Of a DNA stretch of 64,000 nucleotides, positions 6,823 through 19,109 are shown in pieces. The notes under the pieces were generated by a model. The model worked only from the letters and a program-made list of their open reading frames with translations. It did no database searches and had not been told where the DNA came from. The stretch is from positions 32,001 through 96,000 of the forward strand of contig CAVOKF010000001.1 of NCBI GenBank assembly GCA_963696385.1, given 5' to 3'. This DNA comes from an uncultured delta proteobacterium. Its GTDB lineage: Bacteria; Myxococcota_A; Polyangia; Polyangiales; Polyangiaceae. The number at the start of each line of letters is the position of its first letter. The first letter of the stretch is position 1. The position numbers and the translations under genes were made by a program.

Positions 6823-8175
6823 GTGGTACCGTCGGTGCTCGTGCCCGCGTTTCGCTCTTGTGTCCGACTGGCGGTGACTCTCTTCAGCGTCGCCGGCGGC
6901 GCGTGCTCTCAAGCGTCTTCGACTGGGCCCGTGAGCGGCGTTGGCGCCTCCTCGTCGTCCAGTTCGGACCACGCGGGCACATCGTCGTCCGCGGGGGGCG
7001 GCGGTTCATCGAGTACCGCGACCGGCTCGTCCGCGACCGGCTCGTCCGCGACCGGCTCGAGCGCGACCGGGTCGACCGGATCGTCCGCGACGAGCTCCTC
7101 CGCGTCGTCGGCCTCCAGCGGGTCGACCTCGAGCGGGTCGACATCGGGAAATGACGCAGGCACGCTTGGAGCATCCGACGGCGGAACGGGCCGCTTTACG
7201 TGCCCCGCCGGGCCCTTTGCCGCCAATCCGATTCCAGCCGGGGCGACGCCGACGAGGATCGCGGGAGTGCCTCCGCCCGACGAGACCGGTGGCACCATTG
7301 ACCAGAACGGGACGGGCTTTTCGACGATCGAGGGCCCGGTATGGATCAACGCCCTGTTCGTCTCGGAGTTTCCCGGAAGCCCGAATCCGCCGCCCTCGCG
7401 GATCATCGAAATCACTGGGGCAGGAACGGTCAGCGTTCCCGGCCCGGCGGGGTGGAACCCCGGATCGAACGGCCTCGCCGTGGATCCGTCGGGAAACCTC
7501 ATCGCCTGCGTACACAAGGACGGGTCCATCTCCCGCATGGACGTGGTCGCGGGCACGGCAACGCCCATCGCCTCGTCCTATATGGGGGCGCGGTTCAATG
7601 CCCCCAACGACTTGGCGATTCGAAGCGATGGCACCATCTACTTCTCGGACCCCGCCGGCTTCCAGTCTCCCACTCCGGCGCCCCAGGCCCAAGAACGCGT
7701 CTACCGGATCGCCCCCGGCACGAATGCGGTCTCGGTGGTGGAGCCTCAGTCGGGCGCGACGCCGCTGACGAACCCCAACGGCGTCTCGCTCTCGATCGAC
7801 GAAAAGACGCTCTACGTCTCGTCGAAAGACGGCGTCTACGCGTATCCCGTGATGGCTGACGGCAGCGTTGGCGCAGCGCCCTCGACGCCATTTTCGGCGC
7901 TGGACATCGACGGCATGACCCTCGATTGTTCCGGCAACATCTACGGAGCGGTCATTGGTACCAAGACCGTGGCCGTCCTGAGCCCCGCGGGAGCGACGAT
8001 TGCCACCATCACCGTCTCCGGCGGATCGTCGACGACCAACACGGCCTTCGGGGGCGCCGATCACCAGACGCTCTACATCACCACGCAGGGGTCCGGCGGT
8101 GGGCAGACCCCGTCGGCCGCAGGCGCCCAGGGCATATTTCAGGTGGCTCTCGCCATTCCGGGATGGCCGTACTGA
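6823..8175 (+). CDS. SMP-30/gluconolactonase family lipoprotein
   Basis: Lipobox-like GGAC, Ser/Thr linker, EGPVW, SNGLAVD, FNAPNDL, NPNGVSLS, DGMTLD, TNTAFGG. Confidence 0.88.
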   Translation: MVPSVLVPAFRSCVRLAVTLFSVAGGACSQASSTGPVSGVGASSSSSSDHAGTSSSAGGGGSSSTATGSSATGSSATGSSATGSTGSSATSSSASSASSGSTSSGSTSGNDAGTLGASDGGTGRFTCPAGPFAANPIPAGATPTRIAGVPPPDETGGTIDQNGTGFSTIEGPVWINALFVSEFPGSPNPPPSRIIEITGAGTVSVPGPAGWNPGSNGLAVDPSGNLIACVHKDGSISRMDVVAGTATPIASSYMGARFNAPNDLAIRSDGTIYFSDPAGFQSPTPAPQAQERVYRIAPGTNAVSVVEPQSGATPLTNPNGVSLSIDEKTLYVSSKDGVYAYPVMADGSVGAAPSTPFSALDIDGMTLDCSGNIYGAVIGTKTVAVLSPAGATIATITVSGGSSTTNTAFGGADHQTLYITTQGSGGGQTPSAAGAQGIFQVALAIPGWPY

Positions 8176-8242
8176 GGATCGCCATCGCGAACGGCCGCCG
8201 GCGCCTTGCGCGCGTGGGCTGACCCGATTAGGCCCATCGCGT

Positions 8243-8456
8243 GATGCGAAGACCCACCTCTCGCGCTGGCCCGCGGCCGGAGGCCGCGGAAATCGTCGTC
8301 ACCCGAAATGGGCGCCCGGTGGCCAAGCTCGTGGCCGCCACGGCCATCCGCGGGCCGCGTACGCTCGGCGTCCTCAAGGGGCGCATCCGGATTCACAAGG
8401 ATCTCGACGTGCCTCTTTCGGACGACGTTCTCGATGCGTTCGAACGCAAGGCGTGA
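8243..8456 (+). pseudogene. Phd/YefM antitoxin remnant
   Basis: DAKTHLSR lies in one frame and EIVVTRNGRPVAKLV...LGVLKGRIRI in another; no proper N-terminus. Confidence 0.75.
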
Positions 8457-8540
8457 GGCTTCTCCTCGACACGCACGCGCTTCTCTGGGCACTGGCCGCT
8501 CCGGCGAACCTTCCGGCGCTTTCGGCGGGGGCCATTTTGC
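8453..8540 (+). pseudogene. VapC (PIN) toxin N-terminal fragment
   Basis: GTGA overlap with the antitoxin stop; MRLLLDTHALLWAL is a typical VapC start; similarity is lost after about 25 codons (end approximate). Confidence 0.75.
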
Positions 8541-8609
8541 CTTACATCTCGGGTCTCGGTTCCGGGCGAGAAAACTTCCGTCTAGAAGGGGGAAAGAGGA
8601 GAGAGACGC

Positions 8610-9533
8610 ATGAACGAGGTGATTCGCGTGGGAATCGTCGGTGCCGCACTGGCGCTGGCCGGGTGCGTTTCCGAGGGCCAATACGATGCCGCGGTAAAGG
8701 ACCAGCAGCAGGCGCGAGCCGACGCGCAGCGTGCGCATGACGAAGACCAGCAGCGTGCCGCCGATCTGGCCAAAGCCCGTGCTCAGATCGATCAGTTGAA
8801 CGCCTCCATCGAGGACTTGCAGGCGCGCGCCGCCGAGCGCGACAAGGCCTTGGCGAGCGAGCAAGGCAGCGCACGCGAGTTGCGAGCGAAGCTCGACGGC
8901 GCGATCGCCGAGAACGAGCAGCTTCGCAAGGAGCTCGCGCGACTCGGCACGAACGCCGACACGCTGCTCGCCGAGAAAGGCTCGCTGGCGAGCGCGCTCT
9001 CCAATGCGAAGGCGCGTCTCGAGGAGTTGCGCAGGGCCCAAGCGGCGGCGGACGCGCGCGCAGCGCTCTTCAAGCAGCTTGCGCTCAAGTTCCAGAAGAT
9101 GATCGACGCGGGCGAACTGAAGGTTGCGCTTCGCAACGGTCGCATGGTCCTCGAGCTGCCCAACGACGTGTTGTTCGACACCGGACAGACGGCGATCAAG
9201 CCGGCGGGCAAGCAGGCGCTCACGAAAATCGCCGCCGTGCTTCGCACGATCTCGGATCGGCATTTTCAGGTCGCCGGCGACACCGACAACGTCCCCATCG
9301 ACACCCCCCAGTTTCCCTCGAACTGGGAGCTGTCGACCGGGCGCGCGGTGCAGGTCGTGCACTTCCTGCTCGGGCAGGGGATGCGGCCCGATCTGCTCTC
9401 CGCCGCTGGCTACGGTGAGTTCGACCCGGTCGCTTCCAACGAAGCGGCCGATGGACGAGCCCGCAACCGCCGGATCGAAATCACCCTGCAGCCGAACATC
9501 GACGAACTCGTGTCCGTCCCCAAAGGCTCCTGA
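8610..9533 (+). CDS. OmpA/MotB family lipoprotein
   Basis: LAGC lipobox, coiled coil, VLFDTG, GDTDNVPI, SNWELSTGRA, GYGEFDP, RNRRIEI. Confidence 0.92.
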   Translation: MNEVIRVGIVGAALALAGCVSEGQYDAAVKDQQQARADAQRAHDEDQQRAADLAKARAQIDQLNASIEDLQARAAERDKALASEQGSARELRAKLDGAIAENEQLRKELARLGTNADTLLAEKGSLASALSNAKARLEELRRAQAAADARAALFKQLALKFQKMIDAGELKVALRNGRMVLELPNDVLFDTGQTAIKPAGKQALTKIAAVLRTISDRHFQVAGDTDNVPIDTPQFPSNWELSTGRAVQVVHFLLGQGMRPDLLSAAGYGEFDPVASNEAADGRARNRRIEITLQPNIDELVSVPKGS

Positions 9534-9557
9534 GGGCGGGTTGTTTTCTTAGACTTC

Positions 9558-9754
9558 GATCACCCGGACCACCCTGAGCGTTCGCGCTGCTTTACGATCA
9601 CCCGCGATACCCTGAGCGTTCGCTCCGCCTCGACTCGCTTCGCTCGCTCGGCTTCGCTCTCGCGGACCCGGCCCGCACGACACGTCGAGGGGAGCGAATG
9701 CCGCTCCCCTCGAGCTCCCCAGCAGGCCCAGCAGGAGACGAGACGGGTACCCGT
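9558..9754 (+). repeat. REP/BIME-like hairpin repeat, copy 1 (uninterrupted)
   Basis: Two gatcaccc...ccctgagcgttcgc heads, a cgcttcgctcgctc tract, a 12-bp stem tcgaggggagcg-aatgc-cgctcccctcga (9685-9713), ccccagcaggcccagcagg, and palindrome acgggtacccgt; recurs at 11944 and 16845. Confidence 0.85.
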
Positions 9755-9896
9755 CGAGCGCGAACGAGAGTCCAAAGAGGGAAACCTCGAGAGCCGTTTC
9801 ACCCGCTGCGAGATCCAGGGTGAGCCCCAATCGGTTCGCAGTTCCAGTTACATCGGGGCCAATCGTCCCCAGTCTCAAGCATGCTAACCTCAAGTC

Positions 9897-10157
9897 ATGG
9901 AGAGCGTTGAGATCATCGTCTCCGTGGCGCTTCCGAGTGCCGCTCTCGACCGCGAGCCTCCCGATGCGATCCAACGTCGGTTACGGTTGCTGTGGGCGCT
10001 GGATGAAATTCGGGCGGGGCGTCTCACCCGAGTGCCGGGCGCCCGGTGGCTCGGTCTTTCGCTTGATGACTTGCTGGCGGCGGCGGGTGAGCACGGCCTT
10101 GCCGCGTTCGACTACGAAGCAGACGACTTTCGCTCCGAGCTCGCTTCGCTGACGTGA
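9897..10157 (+). CDS. UPF0175 family putative antitoxin
   Basis: 86 aa; AGRLTRVPGARWLGLSLDDLL...GL...DYEADDFRSEL pattern; GTGA-coupled to a PIN-like gene. Confidence 0.7.
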   Translation: MESVEIIVSVALPSAALDREPPDAIQRRLRLLWALDEIRAGRLTRVPGARWLGLSLDDLLAAAGEHGLAAFDYEADDFRSELASLT

Positions 10158-10246
10158 TCGTGGTCGCGGACACGACGCCTCTGCTCTATTTGTCGCGCAT
10201 CGGCCGACTGAATATTGCGCAGGCGCTCGACGCGGTTCTGCTGGGG
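10154..10246 (+). pseudogene. DUF3368-type PIN protein truncated by a transposon end
   Basis: MIVVADTTPLLYLSRIGRL is a typical start; the frame then runs into the terminal repeat at 10247. Confidence 0.75.
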
Positions 10247-10403
10247 GGCTTTGCCCATAAAGGCCGCCTCGGCCCGTCTTTTACGGGCAGCGGGCGATCT
10301 TGCCCAGAAAGTCGAGCGATGAACCGAAGCCGCCGATCTGATACGACCATTCTCTATGGCCGAGCCGCTATCGCCGGACAAGGACTGAGCGAGCGGAGTG
10401 CTA

Positions 10404-10769
10404 TCACTTCGACTTACCGGAAGAACTTGGCTGATTTTTCGGCGAAGGAGGCCGGTCGCCGATGATCTCCTCAACTCGGTACAACTCTGACGGAAGGCAC
10501 CGACCGCAGTTGCTCGTTACTGCCGCCTCGCGAGGGAAGCTAACGCCACCTCTATAGAAGTAGGTCGGCTTCGAAAGTCCGAGCACTCGGCCGGTATGGC
10601 TATTGGGGCCAATGGCAAGACACGCTTCTTGCCGTTGCGTACCCGTACCAACGACGACGAGCCACCTATCCGATTGATCCGGATCGCCATCGCGCGCCGG
10701 CATCTTGCGTACAACTATTGCCGGCCGATATTTGTCGGCTTGAACCCAAACGCAATCACCCGGCGCCAA
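10404..10769 (-). CDS. PemK/MazF-like putative toxin
   Basis: PGDCVWVQADKYRPAIVV matches the GDxxWV..KxRPxxV start of PemK/MazF folds; later GLSKPT; TTG 10769 (or GTG 10781) overlaps the upstream stop. Confidence 0.55.
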   Translation of the reverse strand: MAPGDCVWVQADKYRPAIVVRKMPARDGDPDQSDRWLVVVGTGTQRQEACLAIGPNSHTGRVLGLSKPTYFYRGGVSFPREAAVTSNCGRCLPSELYRVEEIIGDRPPSPKNQPSSSGKSK

Positions 10770-11514
10770 TGTCCGGGTCACCGAGCGGGGAGTACACATC
10801 CTTGCCGCTGGCGAAGGCTTCGCGGCGCCAGGTCTCGATCTCACCCTGATCGAAAGCGGGCTTCGTTGGTCCCTGCGCAGCCGCAATCAGGTTGGCAAGA
10901 AACTCGTTCACTCCGTCAGCGAGGTGGCGGGCGAGGGCTAGGGCGAGCCACGGTTCGAGCCTCTTCCCCAAGTTGACTGCTCTAAAGACCCCGATGGCTG
11001 CGACGATCGCCTTCGACAGCGCCAACATCGCGCGGCGCATCTCGAGCGGCGCATCGGTGTCGTAAAACATATCAACGGGCGTGTGCGTCGCACGCGCCAT
11101 CTCGCTTGGTGACGCTCGCTGAATCACCGGGACCATGGCCCTCGCAAACGAAGCCATGTGCTCCCACCCTCCGCAAAAAATCTTCATCGGCTCTTCGCCG
11201 AGCGTTCGGCGAAGAGGTGGGCTGAAGCGATCTAAAATCCAGTGACGACGACGCCGCGCCCGCTTGAGGGTCGCTTGGTTGGGCAACGACCTGACCCAGA
11301 ACGACGGGTCGCACGCGACCAGCTCCAATCGCTCCGACAAGTCGTCAACGCTTGACGCCTCCAGAACATTGTCCGCGAACGCATCGAAGTGGCACTGCAA
11401 GGCTCTCGCGGTCGCATTCGCCAAAGCACGGTCGTCCGGTCGCGGCTCGAAGAACCCCAAGAGCAGCGACAGCCCCAAGTTGTCTGCGGCAGCTACAGCG
11501 TTCATCGTCTGCAT
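10756..11514 (-). CDS. Hypothetical protein (possible partner of the PemK-like gene)
   Basis: 252-aa helical-looking ORF coupled to the downstream gene inside element 1. Confidence 0.55.
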   Translation of the reverse strand: MQTMNAVAAADNLGLSLLLGFFEPRPDDRALANATARALQCHFDAFADNVLEASSVDDLSERLELVACDPSFWVRSLPNQATLKRARRRRHWILDRFSPPLRRTLGEEPMKIFCGGWEHMASFARAMVPVIQRASPSEMARATHTPVDMFYDTDAPLEMRRAMLALSKAIVAAIGVFRAVNLGKRLEPWLALALARHLADGVNEFLANLIAAAQGPTKPAFDQGEIETWRREAFASGKDVYSPLGDPDIGAG

Positions 11515-11943
11515 CCGAAGTTCACGTCGTCGTGACCCACCTCAATCATGCGTCCCGCCCGTCGATCGAAGCCGGTGCATGGCGAGCGGAACGACCAGCG
11601 ACGCACTCGTAAATTTTGCCATCGCCATCGCGATTGTCGAGGGCACCGGAACGTACACGCGGTTGGCCGTTGCTATCAAGCGTTACAGAATAGAGCCACT
11701 TTCGCTCAGTGCTACGCCGCGTGCCGCTATATGACCTACGCTTGACGTTACGAATCGGCGCGACGAAAAATGTAAGCCGCAGCGTCCTACACCGCACCGT
11801 GGCGGGAACTCAGCCGGATTTTGTCTACATTGTGGGCGTCCACTAATCATTAGGCTGGACGTCCACTGGTCATACGCCGGTCATACGCGATTTATGGGCA
11901 TCGCATCGATTTTACGGGCAGGTCGCGTTTTATAGGCAAAGCC

Positions 11944-12108
11944 CCCCAGCAGGAGACGAGACGGGTACCCGTGTTGATGCGATCACCCGCGACACCCTGA
12001 GCGTTCGCTCCGCCTCGACTCGCTTCGCTCGCTCCGCTCCGCTCCCGCCGTACCACCGGGGCTCACGTCGAGGGGAGCGAAGGCCGCTCCCCTCGAGCTC
12101 CCCAGCAG
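11944..12108 (+). repeat. REP-like repeat copy 2, permuted (tail then head), bounded by ccccagcag direct repeats
   Basis: ccccagcag at 11944-11952 and 12100-12108; same hairpin and palindrome as copy 1. Confidence 0.85.
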
Positions 12109-12474
12109 GGCTTTGCCTATAAAACGCGGCCTGCCCAGAAAAGCGGCAAGCTGCCCAGAAAAAGGCGTCGGCCGCGCCGTGTCGATAATCGACAGCAGTA
12201 GCGTGTATTGTCGGACGATGACGCTAAGTGCAACATCGCATCTAGATGTCGGAATAGTTCAATATTTCTGCGGTAAGATGTCGTAGCCATCAATTGCTGC
12301 ACAATTGATCGCCAACTTTCCGCCTACGCGAAATGGCTCAGCTCGGGGTGGTTCGCGAAACCAGGATCACGCGTGGTCATTGGCGATGTTTGAAGCTCCT
12401 GTCGTTCCTGATAGTTGCAGCTCGTCCGATCAAATCTGTGGCGCATGCGTCGATGATAGCTTATTCCATGGACC

Positions 12475-13068
12475 ATGCGATACGAGGTCCTGACAAGAGA
12501 CGGTGTCCGTATAGTGGCGTCGTCTCCAGCCGATGCCGTTGCGTTGGCGAAGGCCGTAGCAGAGGACGAGGCGGCTTCGCAGAAGAAGGCGCGCCGAGCC
12601 GTTAGTGGCTCGGCCAATGGCCACGCGCCGACCGCACCACCGGCTAACCTTTTCGAGAACGAGGACACTGAGGAGTTGAACAGCCTTGGTGCCTCCTCCG
12701 AGGTCAAGCAATACTGGACGAAGCTAAACTTGGCCCAGCGTATGGCGCTGCGTTCGATCATAAGATCTCCGAACGGCGTCGCACTGGAGGAGATTCGTTC
12801 CGCAGCCGACCTTGCGTCTACCCGCGAGACTTCTGTCTTGTTGAGCCAGTGCGCCAGAGTAGCCGGCAAATGTGGGATTAAGCTGGTCCGATCTGGCCAC
12901 GTTCGAGATCCGCGGTGCGCGCGAGCAGCGCACATCCGTCTACTTTCCAGGACCCCTACTTCGCCGGCCGGAGGAAGCACCGACATAGGCCACCAATCCG
13001 CCAGTGGCGGAATTCAGACAAAGAAAAGCCGCGACAACATTAGAGTTTGCGGGCCGGTGGCGAAGTAG
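12475..13068 (+). CDS. Hypothetical protein, possibly winged-helix; possible frameshift near 12884
   Basis: WTKLNLAQRMALRSII.SPNGVALEEI resembles a wHTH; a shifted frame gives WSDLATFEIRGAREQRTSVYFPGPLL ending at 12988. Confidence 0.45.
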   Translation: MRYEVLTRDGVRIVASSPADAVALAKAVAEDEAASQKKARRAVSGSANGHAPTAPPANLFENEDTEELNSLGASSEVKQYWTKLNLAQRMALRSIIRSPNGVALEEIRSAADLASTRETSVLLSQCARVAGKCGIKLVRSGHVRDPRCARAAHIRLLSRTPTSPAGGSTDIGHQSASGGIQTKKSRDNIRVCGPVAK

Positions 13069-13349
13069 GAACGCGTCGGAGCTGCCACTCCGATACGAAT
13101 CGGTGCGATCCCGATCCGGCCCTTTTCACTCAGTTATCGCGGCTTTACGGCCCGGACGGGGTACGGCCGAGACGTTTCGCAGCAGAACGCCTTGTTTCGT
13201 AGCACGCCCTCCGCACGGGCGCTCGAAAACCGCGTGCGTGCGGAGAGGAAAGGTGTGTTGTGCGGTCACATGACCGAACGTTATTACGGATAAGTTGAGA
13301 TCCAAGATGTAATCCGGCCCGGTTCGGCGAAAGCCTTGAGCCGGGCGGT

Positions 13350-13544
13350 TCACTTGTCTGCCTTTCGCTCTGCTTTGGCGGCGCGGATCAGGCGCTCGAC
13401 AGCCCACGCGCTGACAGTGATGCCCGCCGACGAGGCAGCTTCCTTGACGAGCGCGTCTTGGTCCGGCGTCAGCCGAACGCGAAGGAAGACGGTACGCCTT
13501 GCCTCGTCTGGCTTTCGCCGTTCGATCGCCTTGGACTTCGCCAG
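13350..13544 (-). pseudogene. Ribbon-helix-helix (DUF1778-like) regulator lacking a canonical start codon
   Basis: Manual translation, not in the ORF track: (L)AKSKAIERRKPDEARRTVFLRVRLTPDQDALVKEAASSAGITVSAWAVERLIRAAKAERKADK*; begins at CTG with no in-frame ATG/GTG/TTG upstream. Confidence 0.7.
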
Positions 13545-14691
13545 AGCGGCGCGGCTGACGGTTACGTCGTGGACGTCGCGGTCGGCAAGTGCTCATGCCC
13601 CGACCACGAGACGCGGGCGGTCAAGTGCAAGCACCAATGGGCCGTGGAGTTCGTTCAGAAGCAGACGACGATCGAGACGATGACGAACGCGGATGGTACG
13701 TCGACGGTCCGCGAGACGACGCGCGAGGTGCGGGTGAAGTACACCCAGAATTGGCCAGCGTATAACGCAGCCCAGACGACCGAGAAGGAACACGTCGGCC
13801 GGCTTCTGCGCGCGCTTTGTGATGGCATCCAAGAGCCACCGCAGGCGCGTGGTCGCCCTCGTCTGCCGCTCGCCGACGTCGTCCACGCCGCCGCGATGAA
13901 AGTCTACGTTGGCATGTCCGGTCGGCGCGCCTCGACAGACGTCCGGGAATGCGCGGAGAAGGGCTTGATCGCGCACGCCCCGCATTACAACGCCGTGTTT
14001 TCGTATCTCGAACGCGCCGAACTTTTCCCGCTTCTCAAGACGCTAGTGGAAGAGAGCGCGTCGCCGCTCAAAGTGGCAGAGCGGAGCTTCGCCGTCGATT
14101 CGACGGGCTTCGCGACGAGCACGTATGCGCGATGGTTCGATCACAAGTGCGGGCGCGAGATCAAGGAGCAACGCTGGATCAAGTGCCACGCGATGGTCGG
14201 CGTCGCCACGAACGTCGTAACGAGCATTGAAGTGACTGACGGCGCTTCCGCCGATTGCCCGCAGCTGCCGAGGCTCGTCGCCGCGACGGCGCGGAACTTC
14301 ACAATCGCGGAATGTGAGCGCCGACAAAGCGTATCTCGCGCGAGCCAACATCGACGCGATCGAAGCTGTCGGCGCCGTGCCTTACATCCCGTTCAAATCG
14401 AACTCGAAGGGCGACGGTCCCGCAGCGTGGCGCCGAATGTTCGCGCTCTTCACGCTCGAGCGTGAGCGCTTCCTATCGCGCTATCACGCTCGGTCGAACG
14501 TCGAGACGTCGTTCTCAGCGATCAAGCGGCTCTTCGGCGGCGCGGTGCGCGCGAAACTCCCGACGTCGCAGAAGAACGAGGTGCTTCTGAAGTGCCTCGT
14601 GTTCAACCTGACGTGCCTCGTCCACGCGATGCACGAGCTTGGGATCGAACCGACGTTCGGGCCAATCGAGAACGCGAGGTTAGCGTCGTGA
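13541..14691 (+). pseudogene. DDE transposase (IS5/IS4-like) with N-terminal SWIM zinc finger; 5' truncated and frameshifted near 14313
   Basis: CSCPDHETRAVKCKH (SWIM), NWPAYN, AVDSTGF, ADKAY, YHARSNVETSFSAIK (Y-2-R-3-E-6-K); removing one T in GAA-T-GTG joins ORFs 13458 and 14314. Confidence 0.88.
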
Positions 14692-14999
14692 GCGACCTGA
14701 CGGAGGATCAGCAGGAGAACGTCCGCGCCGCGCTCCGATTCTTTCGGACGCGATCGGGAAGCTGGGAGCCCATCGGCCGCGCGCTCGGGTTCGGAAAGAT
14801 GACGCTTTCGCTCGTCGCGAGCGGAAACAAGCCCGTCAGCCCGAAGATGGCGTTCCGCGTGGCGAAGCTGGCAGGCGTCGGCGTGGATGACGTGCTCGCC
14901 GGGGAGTTCCCAGCGCCAGGGACGTGCCCGATGTGCGGGTATCACAGAATCAAGGGCGCCGAAGATTTTGGCGGAGCGTTGATCCACGTCGAGACGTAG
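14688..14999 (+). CDS. XRE-like HTH protein with a CPxCG motif
   Basis: GTGA-coupled to the transposase; SWEPIGRALGFGKMTLSLVASG..VSPKMAFRVAKLAGVGVDDVL; CPMCG. Confidence 0.7.
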   Translation: MSDLTEDQQENVRAALRFFRTRSGSWEPIGRALGFGKMTLSLVASGNKPVSPKMAFRVAKLAGVGVDDVLAGEFPAPGTCPMCGYHRIKGAEDFGGALIHVET

Positions 15000-15001
15000 C
15001 G

Positions 15002-15544
15002 TTAGTTCGACACCGCACCGCTACCCGGATCAGTGGGCGTGATGGACACGTTTTTAGTGAATTCGCTGATGATTTTGTATTTGCTCTGCAGGCGCCACAA
15101 TGCGATTCGCGCAACCGCATAGTAGCTCGACATGAGAAGGACGCAGAGAACGATGGGCCCAGTAGCCATCGCAAGCACGATCAAGGTCCACGTCCATGGG
15201 GCCAACCGCGAGCACTCCCTCTCGCCGTTGACGGCCGCGCATACCAAGAGCAGGATCAGACCGATCACGCATATGACAGCCAATACGAGACATGTCCGCT
15301 GGCACCACGACGTGCGCCGCTCCAGTTTCGCTGGCACCACTGCAATCTTCGCGGTCTCATTCTGAATGGCCGCCGAGTCGCTCGTGAATCGGTCAAGCAC
15401 GATGGCCCTCAGACCATCGGCCGTGGCGACGAGGGAGGCCCTCACGCGAGCCGTAATAAAGCCTCTATAATGCTCCAAAATTCCGAACGCAAAATTGACC
15501 GCGATACCCGCATCCGCGAGGTGGGTCAGAGATTCGATTCGCAC
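15002..15544 (-). CDS. Hypothetical two-TM membrane protein (cargo)
   Basis: Two hydrophobic stretches (CLVLAVICVIGLILLLVCAAV; WTLIVLAMATGPIVLCVLLM); start uncertain. Confidence 0.55.
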   Translation of the reverse strand: MRIESLTHLADAGIAVNFAFGILEHYRGFITARVRASLVATADGLRAIVLDRFTSDSAAIQNETAKIAVVPAKLERRTSWCQRTCLVLAVICVIGLILLLVCAAVNGERECSRLAPWTWTLIVLAMATGPIVLCVLLMSSYYAVARIALWRLQSKYKIISEFTKNVSITPTDPGSGAVSN

Positions 15545-15591
15545 CCTTCGTCTGCCCCCTCTCGTATGCCAGGGCGTAGCCCGTGCGTGAA

Positions 15592-16197
15592 CTAGATGGC
15601 TCCGGCAACCGGCAGCATAGCTGGATGTGCCATTACAAACGCGCGGTCGAATGTAGAAGCAAGTTCGGACGCCACGCGGGGCTCGTTGAAGTTTGCGATT
15701 GCGGACGTGCTCGAATGATCGGTCTCGAATCTGTACCCGACGCTGTCCATGACAGCGATGTGCTTCGCCGCGTTCGTAGCATATGCGCCACGCGCGAATC
15801 GAACGAGCAAGCCTGTGGATCCGCCATGCAAACTGGTCGCCGCCTTGATTAGCGGGCGCTCCAAGAGATCGGCTAGCGTGTTCTGGATGAGAATCTTCAG
15901 CGTTGCGCCAGGCTTCCTTAGAAATCGCGTGGCCGCCTCAATGAGAAACGGCGCGTTGTACGTGCTTGGCGACAGCGAGCCCGTGAAGATGCGCATGTCA
16001 GATGTTGCGCGTTCGAACATTGCTTCCAGCAGGATGGCCGCATGGATTGGCTTCCCGTTCGGGATGCGTTGGTCGATCTGACCCGTTGCGAGTTTGAAGA
16101 TCAGCTTTCGGTACTCGATGACCTCTGGCGCTTGTAGAGCCTGCGCCATCTCAGCCAGTTCGCGCCGAACCTCCGATGGATCTCGTTCGTGCGCCAT
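15592..16197 (-). CDS. Hypothetical protein, possible degenerate PLD-like fold (cargo)
   Basis: RBS then ATG 16197; A..DMRIFTGSL, LKILI, HIAVMDSVGYRFE, ANFNEP..A..L...FD follow the order seen in PLD-like nuclease domains, but there is no HxK. Confidence 0.6.
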   Translation of the reverse strand: MAHERDPSEVRRELAEMAQALQAPEVIEYRKLIFKLATGQIDQRIPNGKPIHAAILLEAMFERATSDMRIFTGSLSPSTYNAPFLIEAATRFLRKPGATLKILIQNTLADLLERPLIKAATSLHGGSTGLLVRFARGAYATNAAKHIAVMDSVGYRFETDHSSTSAIANFNEPRVASELASTFDRAFVMAHPAMLPVAGAI

Positions 16198-16501
16198 TGC
16201 TCCCAATCCTCTCTGCGTCCGCCGATCGCGAACGGTTTGCTTATACCATGCCATACGGCCGTCAAGATGCCCCCAAGAAGGGGGCCCATCGCGCGTAGCA
16301 ATGTTCGAGCGCACTTAGCTGAAAAGGCCAAGTAATTGAACATTTTACGCGCATAGATCGCAATCGCATCCTTCTGGATGCTGAGGCGCCCGGCGCGCCC
16401 GGCCGCGCGAGGTCATCCGGACCAACGGCGCGCCAAAGAAGGCTGGGTAGCGACCCGATCCGCGACGAGGTTCGTGATCGGCCACTTCTGAAATTGCTCA
16501 G

Positions 16502-16699
16502 TCACGGACCTGGAAGGCGACGGTCGATCTCGTCGGCAAACTCCTTCAGCTTGCCCTGGACGATCGGGTTCGTATGGTCATCCTTCATCTTGTCTAGCTG
16601 ACAATGCATCCGCAGCGACATGAAGCCGGCCAGCAGATCGCTCGTCTTGAACGTCCGAGGGTCCCACGCGGATATCGTCTTCTTGTATTCTTCGCTCAT
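16502..16699 (-). CDS. Small hypothetical protein (cargo)
   Basis: 65-aa ATG ORF with protein-like composition next to end A. Confidence 0.4.
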   Translation of the reverse strand: MSEEYKKTISAWDPRTFKTSDLLAGFMSLRMHCQLDKMKDDHTNPIVQGKLKEFADEIDRRLPGP

Positions 16700-16844
16700 C
16701 GTGCGAGCGTACCCGTGGGAATGATTTCGGCCTCCTCCACCGGCAGCATCTGCCGCGAATCGCTCCTCGGTCGATCAGCCTTTCTGGGCAAAATCGCCCG
16801 CTGCCCGTAAAAGACGGGCGGAGGCGGCCTTTATGGGCAAAGCC

Positions 16845-17098
16845 CCTGCTGGGCCTGCTGGGGAGCTCGAGGGGAGCGGCATTCGCTCCCCTCGACGTGT
16901 AGCGGGCCCCGGTACGGCGGGAGCGGAGCCGAGCGAGCGAAGCGAGTCGAGGCGGAGCGAACGCTCAGGGTGTCGCGGGTGATCGCAAGGCCGTGCGAAC
17001 GCTCAGGGTGTCGCGGGTGATCGCAAGGCCGTGCGAACGCTCAGGGTGTCGCGGGTGATCGCAAGGCCGTGCGAACGCTCAGGGTGAGCCGGGTGACC
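16845..17098 (-). repeat. REP-like repeat copy 3 (inverted) with 38-bp tandem expansion
   Basis: Reverse complement of the copy 1 head; unit gaacgctcagggtgtcgcgggtgatcgcaaggccgtgc at 16959, 16997 and 17035, partial at 17073. Confidence 0.9.
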
Positions 17099-19109
17099 TG
17101 GGACTTAGCGCCACCCCGCGGAAGTATTCCGTGCCGCCCGCGCTGGCGACGGCGACGACGCTCGATGTCCCGTTCCAGGGATTGGACACGCCGTCGTCCG
17201 TGAATACGGCAATTCGGTTGGGAATCTCGGCGGCCGTGGTCGCGATGAGCGTGACCTGCGAGCTGCCGGTCTTCAACCCTGCAAGACCTCGAAAGCCGAC
17301 CGCCGCCGCTCCGCCGTCGGCCGACGGCAGCGTCAGCGTCGCAGTTTGCGTCCACGTCCCTGCGACGAGGGAGAATCGTGCGATCCCCAGGGCCTGACCG
17401 CTGACGAGTGTGTCGTCGGCGACGTACAGGGTGTCCGGCCCTGAGCCGCTTGCCCTCAGGTTGACGAAGACGAATTGCCAGGGGCTCGCCGACGTCGACG
17501 ACACGGTCGGTAGGCCCGGCAGTGTGGCGAGCGCCGGCGAGCCGCCGTCGGGCAAACCCGCACCGACCGAGAACACTTCGCCGGCCGTCGTGTCGCCGCT
17601 GCCGTAGAGCTGACTGTCGTAAATGGTCAGCAGGCGGACCGCGGTCGGGTTGAGCATCATGCCGTCGACGACGCCGAACGGGATGTACCAGATGCCACCG
17701 GTCGTTCCTCCGTCGACCGTGCCACCGAGACCGCCCACCCAGAAAGAAGTCCCGTCGGCCGTGACGGAGCTGCGGATGCTGTTCGCACCGTGGAATGCGG
17801 CACTCGAGAATTGCGTCGAGGTGTCCACGTTTCCGGCCGAGTCGATGCGTGCGACGACGATCGTATCCGCCGAATTGGCGGGATTGGCCGTGCCGAGCGC
17901 GGCGTTGTAGCCGGCCATGGAGAGGTACCGGCCGTCCTGCGATCGGGACAGGCCTGCAATCGCAGCGATTCCAGGCATCGTGAGCAGGTCCTGTCCGGCA
18001 TCGGGGACTCCCGTTGGCAGTGCGACGGGGGCCCCCACGAGTCCGCCATCGGACACGAGGCGCTGCTCGATGAAGACGGGGGCCGCGACGGCCGTCAGGA
18101 CTCCGCCGTCGGTCGCACCGATTCGCACGACGTCGAACGTGAACGGAACGCAGGCTCCGGCGCCGTTGCAGATGTCGCCCGCCCCGCACGACGTTCCCTC
18201 GGCCGTCTCGGCAACGCCGCACAGACCCCCGGTACAGGTCGGGACCGAGCAGATCGTGTCTTGCCCGGGACAGTCCGACGCCACAGCGCACTGGGGCTCG
18301 CAGGCGATCGTGGCGGACAGTGAAGTGAATGCCACACCCGTACACGCACCACTATCGACCAGGCCGATGCTCACGGTCACGGTCACCGTGGTGCCCGGAG
18401 TCGAGCATAGGAACTCCGGCGCCAGGGACGTAGCGCCCGGCCCGCCGTCGACGGGGTTCACGAAGCTGCCGCCGGTCGGCGGAGTCACGCTCCATTCGAC
18501 GGTCGAGGGGGCGCTGGCCAGGACGCCGAGCTGCGCGCCCTGGCCGACCGCGAGTGCGGCCGGATTGATTGAAAAGGAGGCGATGGCGGGGCAGAGGATG
18601 GGGGGCTGGTTCACCAGGATGACGCCGGCGTCGACCGCGAACGAGCCGGTCTGGATGTCGGCGTTGAGGCTGGCGTCGGTCGGAACGGTACAGGTGACGA
18701 GGAGGGCGACGTTCGTGATCTGACCCGCCACGACCCCGAATGGGTTCGAGGATCCCGCGCAAGGATCACCCTCGCTGTCGACGCCGAAAACGGAAATCGT
18801 GTAGCCGGATCCCGCAGCGATGCCTCCGGCGACGAATTCGACCGATTGTGCGTCGCCGATCGGTTCGACTCCGCTGTACGAGTTCGGTCCCGAGATCGTC
18901 CAACCCAGCGACGCCAAGGTGACCTGGGTGCCGATCGTCAAAGTCGCACCGACCGCCCCGGTATCGCCTCCGAGGCCCGGGTGGCCGCTGCCGGTCGTGC
19001 CCGTCGGATTGCCTCGATCCGGGGTCCCTTCGCGTGGGCTCGAACAGGCGAGAAACAACGCCCCTGCCATCATCAGCGAAGCGAAGAAGACCTTGGCGAG
19101 TCGTGTCAT
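17079..19109 (-). CDS. Large Cys-rich lipoprotein with beta-rich C-terminal domain
   Basis: MTRLAKVFF...FLAC lipobox; Cys-rich CAVASDC...CNGAGAC segment; ends FRGVALSP. Confidence 0.75.
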   Translation of the reverse strand: MTRLAKVFFASLMMAGALFLACSSPREGTPDRGNPTGTTGSGHPGLGGDTGAVGATLTIGTQVTLASLGWTISGPNSYSGVEPIGDAQSVEFVAGGIAAGSGYTISVFGVDSEGDPCAGSSNPFGVVAGQITNVALLVTCTVPTDASLNADIQTGSFAVDAGVILVNQPPILCPAIASFSINPAALAVGQGAQLGVLASAPSTVEWSVTPPTGGSFVNPVDGGPGATSLAPEFLCSTPGTTVTVTVSIGLVDSGACTGVAFTSLSATIACEPQCAVASDCPGQDTICSVPTCTGGLCGVAETAEGTSCGAGDICNGAGACVPFTFDVVRIGATDGGVLTAVAAPVFIEQRLVSDGGLVGAPVALPTGVPDAGQDLLTMPGIAAIAGLSRSQDGRYLSMAGYNAALGTANPANSADTIVVARIDSAGNVDTSTQFSSAAFHGANSIRSSVTADGTSFWVGGLGGTVDGGTTGGIWYIPFGVVDGMMLNPTAVRLLTIYDSQLYGSGDTTAGEVFSVGAGLPDGGSPALATLPGLPTVSSTSASPWQFVFVNLRASGSGPDTLYVADDTLVSGQALGIARFSLVAGTWTQTATLTLPSADGGAAAVGFRGLAGLKTGSSQVTLIATTAAEIPNRIAVFTDDGVSNPWNGTSSVVAVASAGGTEYFRGVALSPRSPGSP

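Follow-up and report, generated by a model that had tools for sequence, protein, structure and literature searches.

The insertion sequence (IS) IS903 is ∼1 kb in length, carries a single gene and has short simple inverted repeats; its termini start with GGCTTTG and it generates a 9-bp target duplication. MuDR (Mutator) has a SWIM finger of the form CxCxnCxH together with a DDE transposase, and its ends contain subterminal repeats; the description of the SWIM domain in 2002 reportedly links this finger to MuDR-type transposases. In Tn7 and phage Mu, each end has several transposase-binding repeats, and these are arranged differently at the two ends. Two elements that share properties with these systems, termed here El1 and El2, are found next to each other in the genome of an uncultured delta proteobacterium of the family Polyangiaceae (contig CAVOKF010000001.1). 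They lie at positions 10247 to 16844 of a stretch of 64,000 nucleotides, termed the window, whose numbering is used throughout. El1 and El2 are quite likely to be members of a unit-transposon (transporter IS, tIS) family with an IS5-family, IS903-like SWIM-finger DDE transposase, and to have been rearranged by an inversion.

The family resembles the IS903 group in its DDE_Tnp_1 transposase, for which the best model is of IS5 type, in its GGCTTTG termini and in its 9-bp duplication. It differs in that the transposase is ∼100 residues longer at the N-terminus, where a CxCx9CxH finger is situated. In addition, each end extends over 55-65 bp and contains a motif three times, the two ends are unlike, and the elements are 2.5-9.5 kb in length with passenger genes, many relatives also encoding a zinc-ribbon microprotein. 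As in Mutator-like elements (MULE/MuDR) and IS256, the DDE transposase bears a CxCxnCxH finger and the ends have subterminal repeats, but the catalytic domain is DDE_Tnp_1 (IS4/IS5 type), the finger is N-terminal, and no MULE or IS256 match was found in Pfam or NCBIfam. The ends carry several repeats, which are candidate binding sites, in an unlike arrangement at the two ends as in Tn7 and Mu; however, a TnsB/MuA-type (rve) transposase, an ATPase partner and a 5-bp duplication are all missing, and the termini do not start with TG. Unlike Tn3-type transposons, the family shows no resolvase among the Pfam matches of proteins from the window and its relatives, and no res site was seen. Passengers and one transposase gene within a single pair of ends correspond to the tIS concept as set out in PMC9330008, but no literature was found that places an IS903-like SWIM-bearing family among the tIS. 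The IS903 group in Paracoccus is among the subjects of PMC3281130. A full-text literature search, with ISfinder and TnCentral outside its range, found no SWIM-bearing IS5/IS903-like family with passenger genes. The family is IS903-like and widespread, being present in several phyla, and apparently lacks a description in the full-text literature.

Ends and transposase of the two elements

The terminal pattern GGCTTTGCCYATAAA has four exact sites in the window, at 10247 (+), 11943 (−), 12109 (+) and 16844 (−). Of 100 dinucleotide shuffles, with a mean of 0.03 sites, none reaches four. El1 extends from 10247 to 11943 (1697 bp), with an A-type end at the left and a B-type end at the right, and is non-autonomous in that it has no transposase. 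El2 extends from 12109 to 16844 (4736 bp), with the B-type end at the left and the A-type end at the right, and carries the transposase gene. The original prediction, which was based on the letters of the sequence, had deduced two elements of these same sizes from four termini, and the pattern is indeed found exactly four times. Its counts of end identity were also reproduced. The two A ends are identical at 63 of 65 nt by reading, the exceptions being end positions 25 and 53, and an inverted-repeat search aligns them over 67 nt at 97% complementarity. The B ends are identical at 27 of the first 28 nt; further in, their agreement is limited to a repeated motif (the inverted-repeat search gives 81% over 54 nt). 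The interiors are unrelated, as had been stated; El1 compared by BLASTN with El2 and the rest of the genome gives matches at the ends only. Genome-wide (6.9 Mb), there are no termini other than these four, and both elements are single-copy. G+C content is 0.53-0.66 within the elements (0.55-0.65 in El1) compared with 0.65-0.72 in the flanks.

Support at the read level comes from Logan contigs of four runs (among them X1, X2 and X4) of one study, possibly including the source sample of the window. Contigs of all four cover the region, with 0-1 differences each. The junction of a PIN gene with end A1 and the El1 interior, in the present order, is spanned by an X2 contig (10041-10594).

The ends contain arrays of a 10-bp motif, defined as the ten letters that follow GGCTT, which in the window is TGCCCATAAA. 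In the two A ends, A1 (10247..10311, plus strand) and A2 (16780..16844, minus strand), motif copies resembling TGCCCATAAA are at end position 6 in direct orientation, at 34 inverted and at 55 direct. In the two B ends, B1 (11889..11943, minus strand) and B2 (12109..12165, plus strand), they are at 6, 24 and 44, and all are direct. Related elements, described below, display the same architecture. The end that is usually upstream of the transposase gene has motif copies at 6, 24 and 44 (or 55/65), all direct, and the opposite end has the motif at 6 direct and 34 inverted, with a third copy at 54-64. These positions hold in El1, El2 and the loci L076, L082, L087, L138 and L140, and the motif letters drift among lineages; the fixed positions are shared by elements of Planctomycetota, Acidobacteriota, Myxococcota and the phylum of the window. 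In six of seven transposase-bearing elements the direct-array end is upstream of the transposase gene, the arrangement being opposite in L137. El1 is bounded by an A-type and a B-type end whose motif arrays are those of El2, and thus it has what the family transposase would need.

The transposase gene of El2 is a pseudogene in two pieces. The N-terminal piece (13458..14312, plus strand) covers the CxCx9CxH finger and the beginning of DDE_Tnp_1; the C-terminal piece (14314-14688, or to 14691, plus strand) encodes the rest of this domain in the +1 frame, the T at 14313 being one base too many. With respect to P0002, an intact relative of 415 amino acids that is 78% identical to the window transposase, one piece stops at residue 291 and the other starts at 292. 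Contigs of X2 (13911-14715) and X4 (14165-14376) have the same letters at the extra T; the frameshift called originally is real. Transposases of the relatives share an N-terminal motif, ...RGLAL.KDKRI..., which has at best a weak in-frame match in the window, at 13245..13292 (plus strand; E 0.024 to residues 6-21 of P0004). This segment, EERCVVRSHDRTLLRI, is a possible remnant of the transposase N-terminus that is severed by a stop codon and ∼55 extra codons. The gene is dead, with a one-base insertion and a disrupted 5′ end. As had been predicted, the transposase is confined to El2, where DDE_Tnp_1 is in two pieces, and there is one transposase match genome-wide. The prediction also had autonomous and non-autonomous members; El1, without a transposase, is an example of the latter, but El2, with at least two breaks in its transposase gene, is no longer autonomous. 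With its sole transposase copy broken and no recognizable gene for the microprotein that is found in many relatives, both elements are dead in the window genome.

With the Pfam family PF01609 (DDE_Tnp_1; cut-off 23 bits), the two window pieces score 25.4 and 30.7 bits, full-length transposases of relatives 58.7-86.1 bits and a truncated copy in L195 43.0 bits. The best curated NCBIfam model for the window pieces is NF033579 (transpos_IS5_2), at 50.8 and 68.5 bits; the curated 140-bit cut-off is not reached by any of five intact relatives (96.6-128.2 bits), although the model is still the top-scoring one for all of them. Assignment to an IS5/IS4-like family is therefore retained as IS5-like and not as IS4-like. 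The finger is N-terminal, at residues 44-58 of the window protein (CSCPDHETRAVKCKH), and has the CxCx9CxH motif. SWIM scores (PF04434) are above the threshold in L140 (25.4 bits) and in 8 of 11 metagenome transposase open reading frames (22.5-32.5 bits).

Among 7426 candidates there are 4114 homologues of the transposase at E≤0.001, and most have 400-420 amino acids; a precomputed SWIM match is present in 34 of 120 homologues among those listed. Within the window's phylum the transposase is sparse, with one copy each in 7 of 400 other genomes. The closest named plasmid elements, ISAte1 and ISRusp1, are 27-29% identical and align over residues 96-284 only.

Relatives of the elements and how they may move

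A scan of reference genomes with the 15-mer terminus gave 120 loci, mostly chance matches in unrelated sequence; 3 of these also contain a transposase homologue and 4 more contain miniature copies. L076 (Planctomycetota) is an element of 3205 bp with the 9-bp duplication GCCACAATA, and L082 (Kofleriaceae) one of 3630 bp with the 9-bp duplication CGGTGCCGG. Miniature copies of 88 bp (L012, L047) and 98 bp (L060) each have a 9-bp duplication. A search of the phylum added L137, which is 9491 bp in length (8111-17601) with the duplication AGCGCTATT, L138 of 9320 bp with the duplication CCCCACACG at a one-base offset, and L140, a contig of 3392 bp that is the element itself. In L137, which is in a genome of the same family as the window, the transposase gene is reversed relative to the end types when compared with six other elements examined, and this suggests an internal inversion.

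Metagenomes were a further source. Fourteen of 80 loci, representing 12 distinct elements of 2464-7865 bp, have GGCTTTGCC termini with a matching 9-mer, which is exact (9/9) in 11 of the loci and 9/9 at a one-base offset in 3. No element delimited by a duplication is near the size of the transposase gene alone (∼1.25 kb), the shortest being that of 2464 bp. G+C content is lower within the elements than in their flanks. Elements of this family are thus bounded by GGCTTTGCC termini and 9-bp target duplications, and the interior differs from element to element. The original prediction had named as its own refutation that the ends do not occur as paired termini with variable cargo elsewhere; L076, L082, L137, L138 and the 12 metagenome elements do have such paired termini, with a different cargo in each case, and the prediction is not refuted.

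A mode of movement may be proposed from the architecture of the ends. Several transposase subunits would bind the arrays of 10-bp motifs, with the zinc finger as the likely reader. The transposase would then pair the two unlike ends and excise or nick the element, and insertion with a 9-bp stagger would carry along whatever DNA is situated between the ends. El1, with both end types and the same arrays, could be moved in trans by a transposase of the El2 type. The fixed asymmetric arrays offer a testable model for how a SWIM finger may direct a DDE enzyme.

Flanking repeats and the order of the two elements

The elements adjoin a dispersed host repeat, termed F, whose units of 118-134 nt have a 29-nt hairpin and end in CCCCAGCAGG. 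In the window, F is at 9557-9754, 11978-12108 and 16854-17100, with 38-nt sub-repeats at 16950-17096. Elsewhere in the genome there are ∼35 further matches, in four contigs including C5 and C8 and often in direct tandem arrays, and other members of the genus have F in their genomes as well. The end of an F unit marks three of the four transposon junctions, and El2 is enclosed by F units that are inverted with respect to each other and share 98-99% identity. In the closest sister genome (G403), the same two flanking genes, with 90-95% identity, are ∼207 bp apart with a single F unit between them (L145:2497-2704, i.e. G403:C65:4179-4386). The 7.5 kb from 9534 to 17100 of the window is missing there, and therefore this whole region is lineage-specific in the window genome. 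The region includes an intact UPF0175 antitoxin gene (9897-10157), which is followed by a 5′ remnant of a PIN toxin gene (10154..10246, plus strand) of 31 codons that is cut at the A1 junction. The full-length PIN homologue in G408 has 163 amino acids (L160:1219-1707).

The nine nucleotides outside each terminus show a crosswise relationship. The A1 flank (10238..10246, plus strand) is CTGCTGGGG, the reverse complement of the B2 flank. The B1 flank (11944..11952, plus strand) is CCCCAGCAG, or CTGCTGGGG if read towards the end, and forms a direct-repeat pair with the A2 flank at a one-base offset. The B2 flank (12100..12108, plus strand) is CCCCAGCAG and is the end of a host F unit. The A2 flank (16845..16853, plus strand) is CCTGCTGGG, or CCCAGCAGG if read towards the end, and is the start of an inverted F unit. 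When A1 is paired with B2, a perfect 9-mer duplication is obtained, and pairing of B1 with A2 gives CCTGCTGGG with one extra G. A one-base offset of the duplication is likewise found in L138, L176, L191 and L222. The 9-bp duplications that the prediction ascribed to IS903 are present in the family, i.e. in elements from genomes and metagenomes and in the miniature copies, but in the window they are seen crosswise only.

A history can be proposed for this arrangement. El1 and El2 would each have inserted at the CCCCAGCAGG end of an F unit, each making a 9-bp duplication. Recombination between the inverted, near-identical 65-bp A ends would then have flipped all of the DNA between them. By this event, the outer flanks would have been swapped, and two tandem F units would have become an inverted pair around El2. 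A single inversion between the A ends explains the exchange of outer flanks, both 9-bp duplications and a tandem order of F units at once, and that one such inversion rearranged the pair is the most likely history.

Several observations weigh against this reading of the locus and of the family. As they stand, neither El1 nor El2 has a direct duplication, the two flanks of each being inverted, and the duplication of El1 requires a one-base offset. For El2 the target would be an F unit to which a 5′ fragment of the PIN gene had already been fused, and this presupposes a further, hypothetical deletion at an earlier time. The un-inverted order was not found in contigs of the four runs or in relatives; the run contigs are short and mostly break at repeats, and they neither support nor contradict an inversion. 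Both elements are single-copy, and no transposition event has been observed. Among the relatives, L087 (Pyrinomonadaceae, 3198 bp) has paired ends without a duplication, as do 9 of the 80 metagenome loci, and 57 of the 80 lack one or both ends under the strict pattern, many of them being short contigs. With respect to the transposase, the Pfam SWIM score of the window copy is 17.2 bits (E 0.0036), below the gathering score of 19.6 bits; the proposed fusion of a SWIM finger to a DDE domain has the finger motif and the scores of relatives in its favour but not this value, and the finger of the window copy is taken as SWIM-like.

Other explanations of the locus may be considered. The span 10247-16844 might be one composite transposon that moves on the inverted A ends, which are identical at 63 of 65 nt, and that contains El1, a 165-bp spacer and El2. 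The outer flanks do share CTGCTGGG as a direct repeat if each terminus is taken to be one G longer, but this repeat is only 8 bp whereas the family makes 9 bp, and family elements pair an A-type with a B-type end and not A with A. Furthermore, a composite accounts neither for the inverted F units of 98-99% identity nor for the CCCCAGCAG sequences that are repeated in direct order beyond the B ends. To its right is host F DNA, which the sister genome also has at this position, and to its left is a PIN gene that the sister genome lacks. The usual definition, two copies of one IS around cargo, does not fit El1, which is without a transposase, or two unrelated interiors. A composite transposon is thus quite improbable.

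Inverted flanks might also arise in ways that do not involve inversion of a pair, by insertion into palindromic repeat pairs or by a transposase event that duplicates a flank in inverted form. In addition to El1 and El2, a third element has inverted flanks; this is a 2337-bp element (L213:567-2903, L215:2415-4751) with 18-nt inverted flanks, no direct duplication, no second element on the contig and no partner within ∼2.4 kb on either side. A mechanism other than two-element recombination may have produced its flanks. F itself contains a 29-nt hairpin. However, a 9-bp staggered cut in a palindrome still gives a direct repeat, which is not seen. Of 21 other elements whose flanks can be read, 18 have ordinary direct duplications. 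The genome searches contribute 7 of these, out of 8 elements (L087 is the exception), and the metagenomes 11, out of 13 distinct elements (L213/L215 has inverted flanks and the L211 pair is doubtful). A single inversion accounts for both window elements while restoring the 9-bp duplications and the tandem F units. An origin of the flanks of this kind is considered unlikely. That the termini are chance matches or an assembly artefact, and that there are no transposons at all, would accord with the single-copy state of both elements and with the 120 reference-genome 15-mer matches, most of which are unrelated and only three of which have a transposase homologue. It is hardly credible, given that none of the 100 shuffles yields four matches, that the 55-65-nt end architecture recurs in other phyla beside homologous transposases and 9-bp duplications, and that contigs of four runs cover a region which the sister genome lacks. 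The reading of El1 and El2 as two family members rearranged by one inversion is therefore preferred.

Microprotein, tRNA genes and passengers

Of 90 family loci, 40 encode a zinc-ribbon microprotein of roughly 50-70 amino acids, with the motif ...RCxRCxHEWxPR...CPKCKSPYW.... Its gene is mostly divergent from and just upstream of the transposase gene (e.g. L076:8671, L137:8971, L138:10742, L140:2173, L168:7719), and its coding DNA accounts for a conserved stretch of 45-57 nt. No zinc-ribbon motif is present in the six frames of the window, where the best tblastn remnant (13342-13389, minus strand) has E = 4; the missing microprotein is in keeping with decay.

El2 also contains a tRNA-like gene at 13051..13123 (plus strand), which scores 44 bits with the Rfam tRNA model (gathering score 29) and is reported by ARAGORN as tRNA-?(Ala|Gly)(gc). 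Its anticodon loop has 8 nt according to Rfam or 6 nt according to ARAGORN, the T loop is off-consensus, and it is unlike any host tRNA. In relatives, well-formed tRNA genes of 52-63.5 bits are found in the same place and on the strand of the transposase gene, 50-570 nt upstream of it. These comprise tRNA Gln-CTG (L169:7392-7466), Asp-GTC (L183:7542-7613) and Thr-CGT (L195:3364-3437), and genes with a long variable arm and the anticodon TGC (L176:7526-7610), GGG (L205:163-248, L223:662-747) or CTA (L228:930-1013). The combination of a long variable arm with anticodon TGC, GGG or CTA is unusual. Over 80 kb of DNA upstream of the transposase gene in 91 loci, ARAGORN found 10 tRNA genes on the transposase strand and none on the opposite strand; relaxed ARAGORN thresholds gave one extra match (L191), which is below the Rfam gathering score. 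A role of the El2 gene as a frameshift-suppressor tRNA was considered and rejected. The +1 site is GAA-T-GTG, and no four letters of the loop GCUGCCAC pair with GAAU or UGUG.

Passenger genes share one pair of ends with the transposase gene and differ between elements, in agreement with the view of a cargo transposon that had been put forward. Several are of the restriction-modification, toxin-antitoxin or defence type. L194 carries EcoRII, Vsr and Dcm (C5-methylase), L222 carries SNF2, ParB and PAPS-reductase, L195 carries helix-turn-helix (HTH) and Gp49 genes, with L076 similar by eye, and L082 carries Fic/Doc and Panacea. A PD-T4-7 match (E 4.5e-26) is in L138 and PDC-M04B is in L087. DUF2779 is found in L137 and P63C in L168, and there are many unknowns elsewhere. 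Toxin and defence-type cargo, as originally suggested, is thus a property of relatives, which have restriction-modification, toxin-antitoxin and PD-T4-7 genes, but not visibly of the window, where PADLOC gave no match with seven cargo open reading frames.

These properties may point to a large class that has not appeared in print. It would consist of IS5-derived unit transposons with a SWIM transposase acting on asymmetric motif arrays, a zinc-ribbon microprotein as a usual component, and in some lineages a tRNA (some type-II-shaped, with anticodons such as CUA). The class would be a major vehicle of defence, restriction-modification and toxin-antitoxin genes across phyla, with cargo-only derivatives such as El1. 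The chances that a class of this breadth exists are considered to be about even. If the family is what it seems to be, then in many phyla of soil and sediment a simple one-gene transposase of IS903 type carries kilobases of any cargo, a large share of it defence genes; these genes would travel by a path to which annotation pipelines now give no label other than 'transposase'. To this picture the window contributes a partner element that has matching ends but only cargo, a probable example of chromosome rearrangement by recombination between element ends, and a tRNA-like gene where relatives have well-formed, partly odd tRNA genes.

The cargo gene of El1 (10756..11514, minus strand) encodes an all-alpha protein of 252 amino acids, and its G+C content by codon position is 0.64/0.49/0.75. 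There are 69 representative homologues at E≤0.001, but no match in Pfam, PADLOC or the Protein Data Bank (PDB), the best Foldseek match against the PDB having E 0.19. Of 30 family members, none has a meaningful Pfam match, and the Atlas gave only unnamed clusters, at 0.91. In a wide VIA structure comparison the best Z was 6.3, to helical proteins, with no function assignable.

In El2, an open reading frame of uncertain reality with no family match is at 12475..13068 (plus strand). It has 197 codons in the window but 170 in contigs of X1, X2 and X4, which are one base short at 12883; the difference reflects either an error of assembly or variation within the population. Directly behind the transposase gene is a small gene (14592..14999, plus strand) whose product is HTH-like by eye and has one CPxC, with no Pfam match. 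By tblastn this gene is also directly behind the transposase gene in L082 and L139, and it is found in six distinct metagenome elements with transposases that are among the most closely related ones (L165, L167, L168, L169-171, L174, L196). It is the only cargo protein of the window that recurs in other elements.

The other three genes of El2 form a row on the minus strand. At its head is a 65-amino-acid open reading frame without a family (16502..16699), and the row also includes a gene for a protein of 180 amino acids (15002..15544) with two hydrophobic stretches, a membrane protein by eye with sub-threshold Pfam matches only. The remaining gene (15592..16197) encodes a DUF7931 protein of 201 amino acids, counted from the P0122 start, with a Pfam score of 36.9 bits; at E values up to 5, no other cargo protein of the window has a Pfam match above threshold. 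A structural model of this protein, from 10 homologous sequences, has a pLDDT of 82.7. The model is matched by Foldseek to TrmBL2 (1.4e-6) and Nuc 1byr (1.8e-5), and also to NucT and Zucchini, with E from 1e-6 to 5e-4 and TM scores of 0.46-0.58. In phospholipase D, the canonical catalytic motif is HxK(x)4D. The DUF7931 protein models as a phospholipase-D-like fold with a non-canonical motif: the invariant residues are K145-H146...D151...N169/N171, and they lie within KHxAVMD...AxANFNE, which is not the canonical HxK order.

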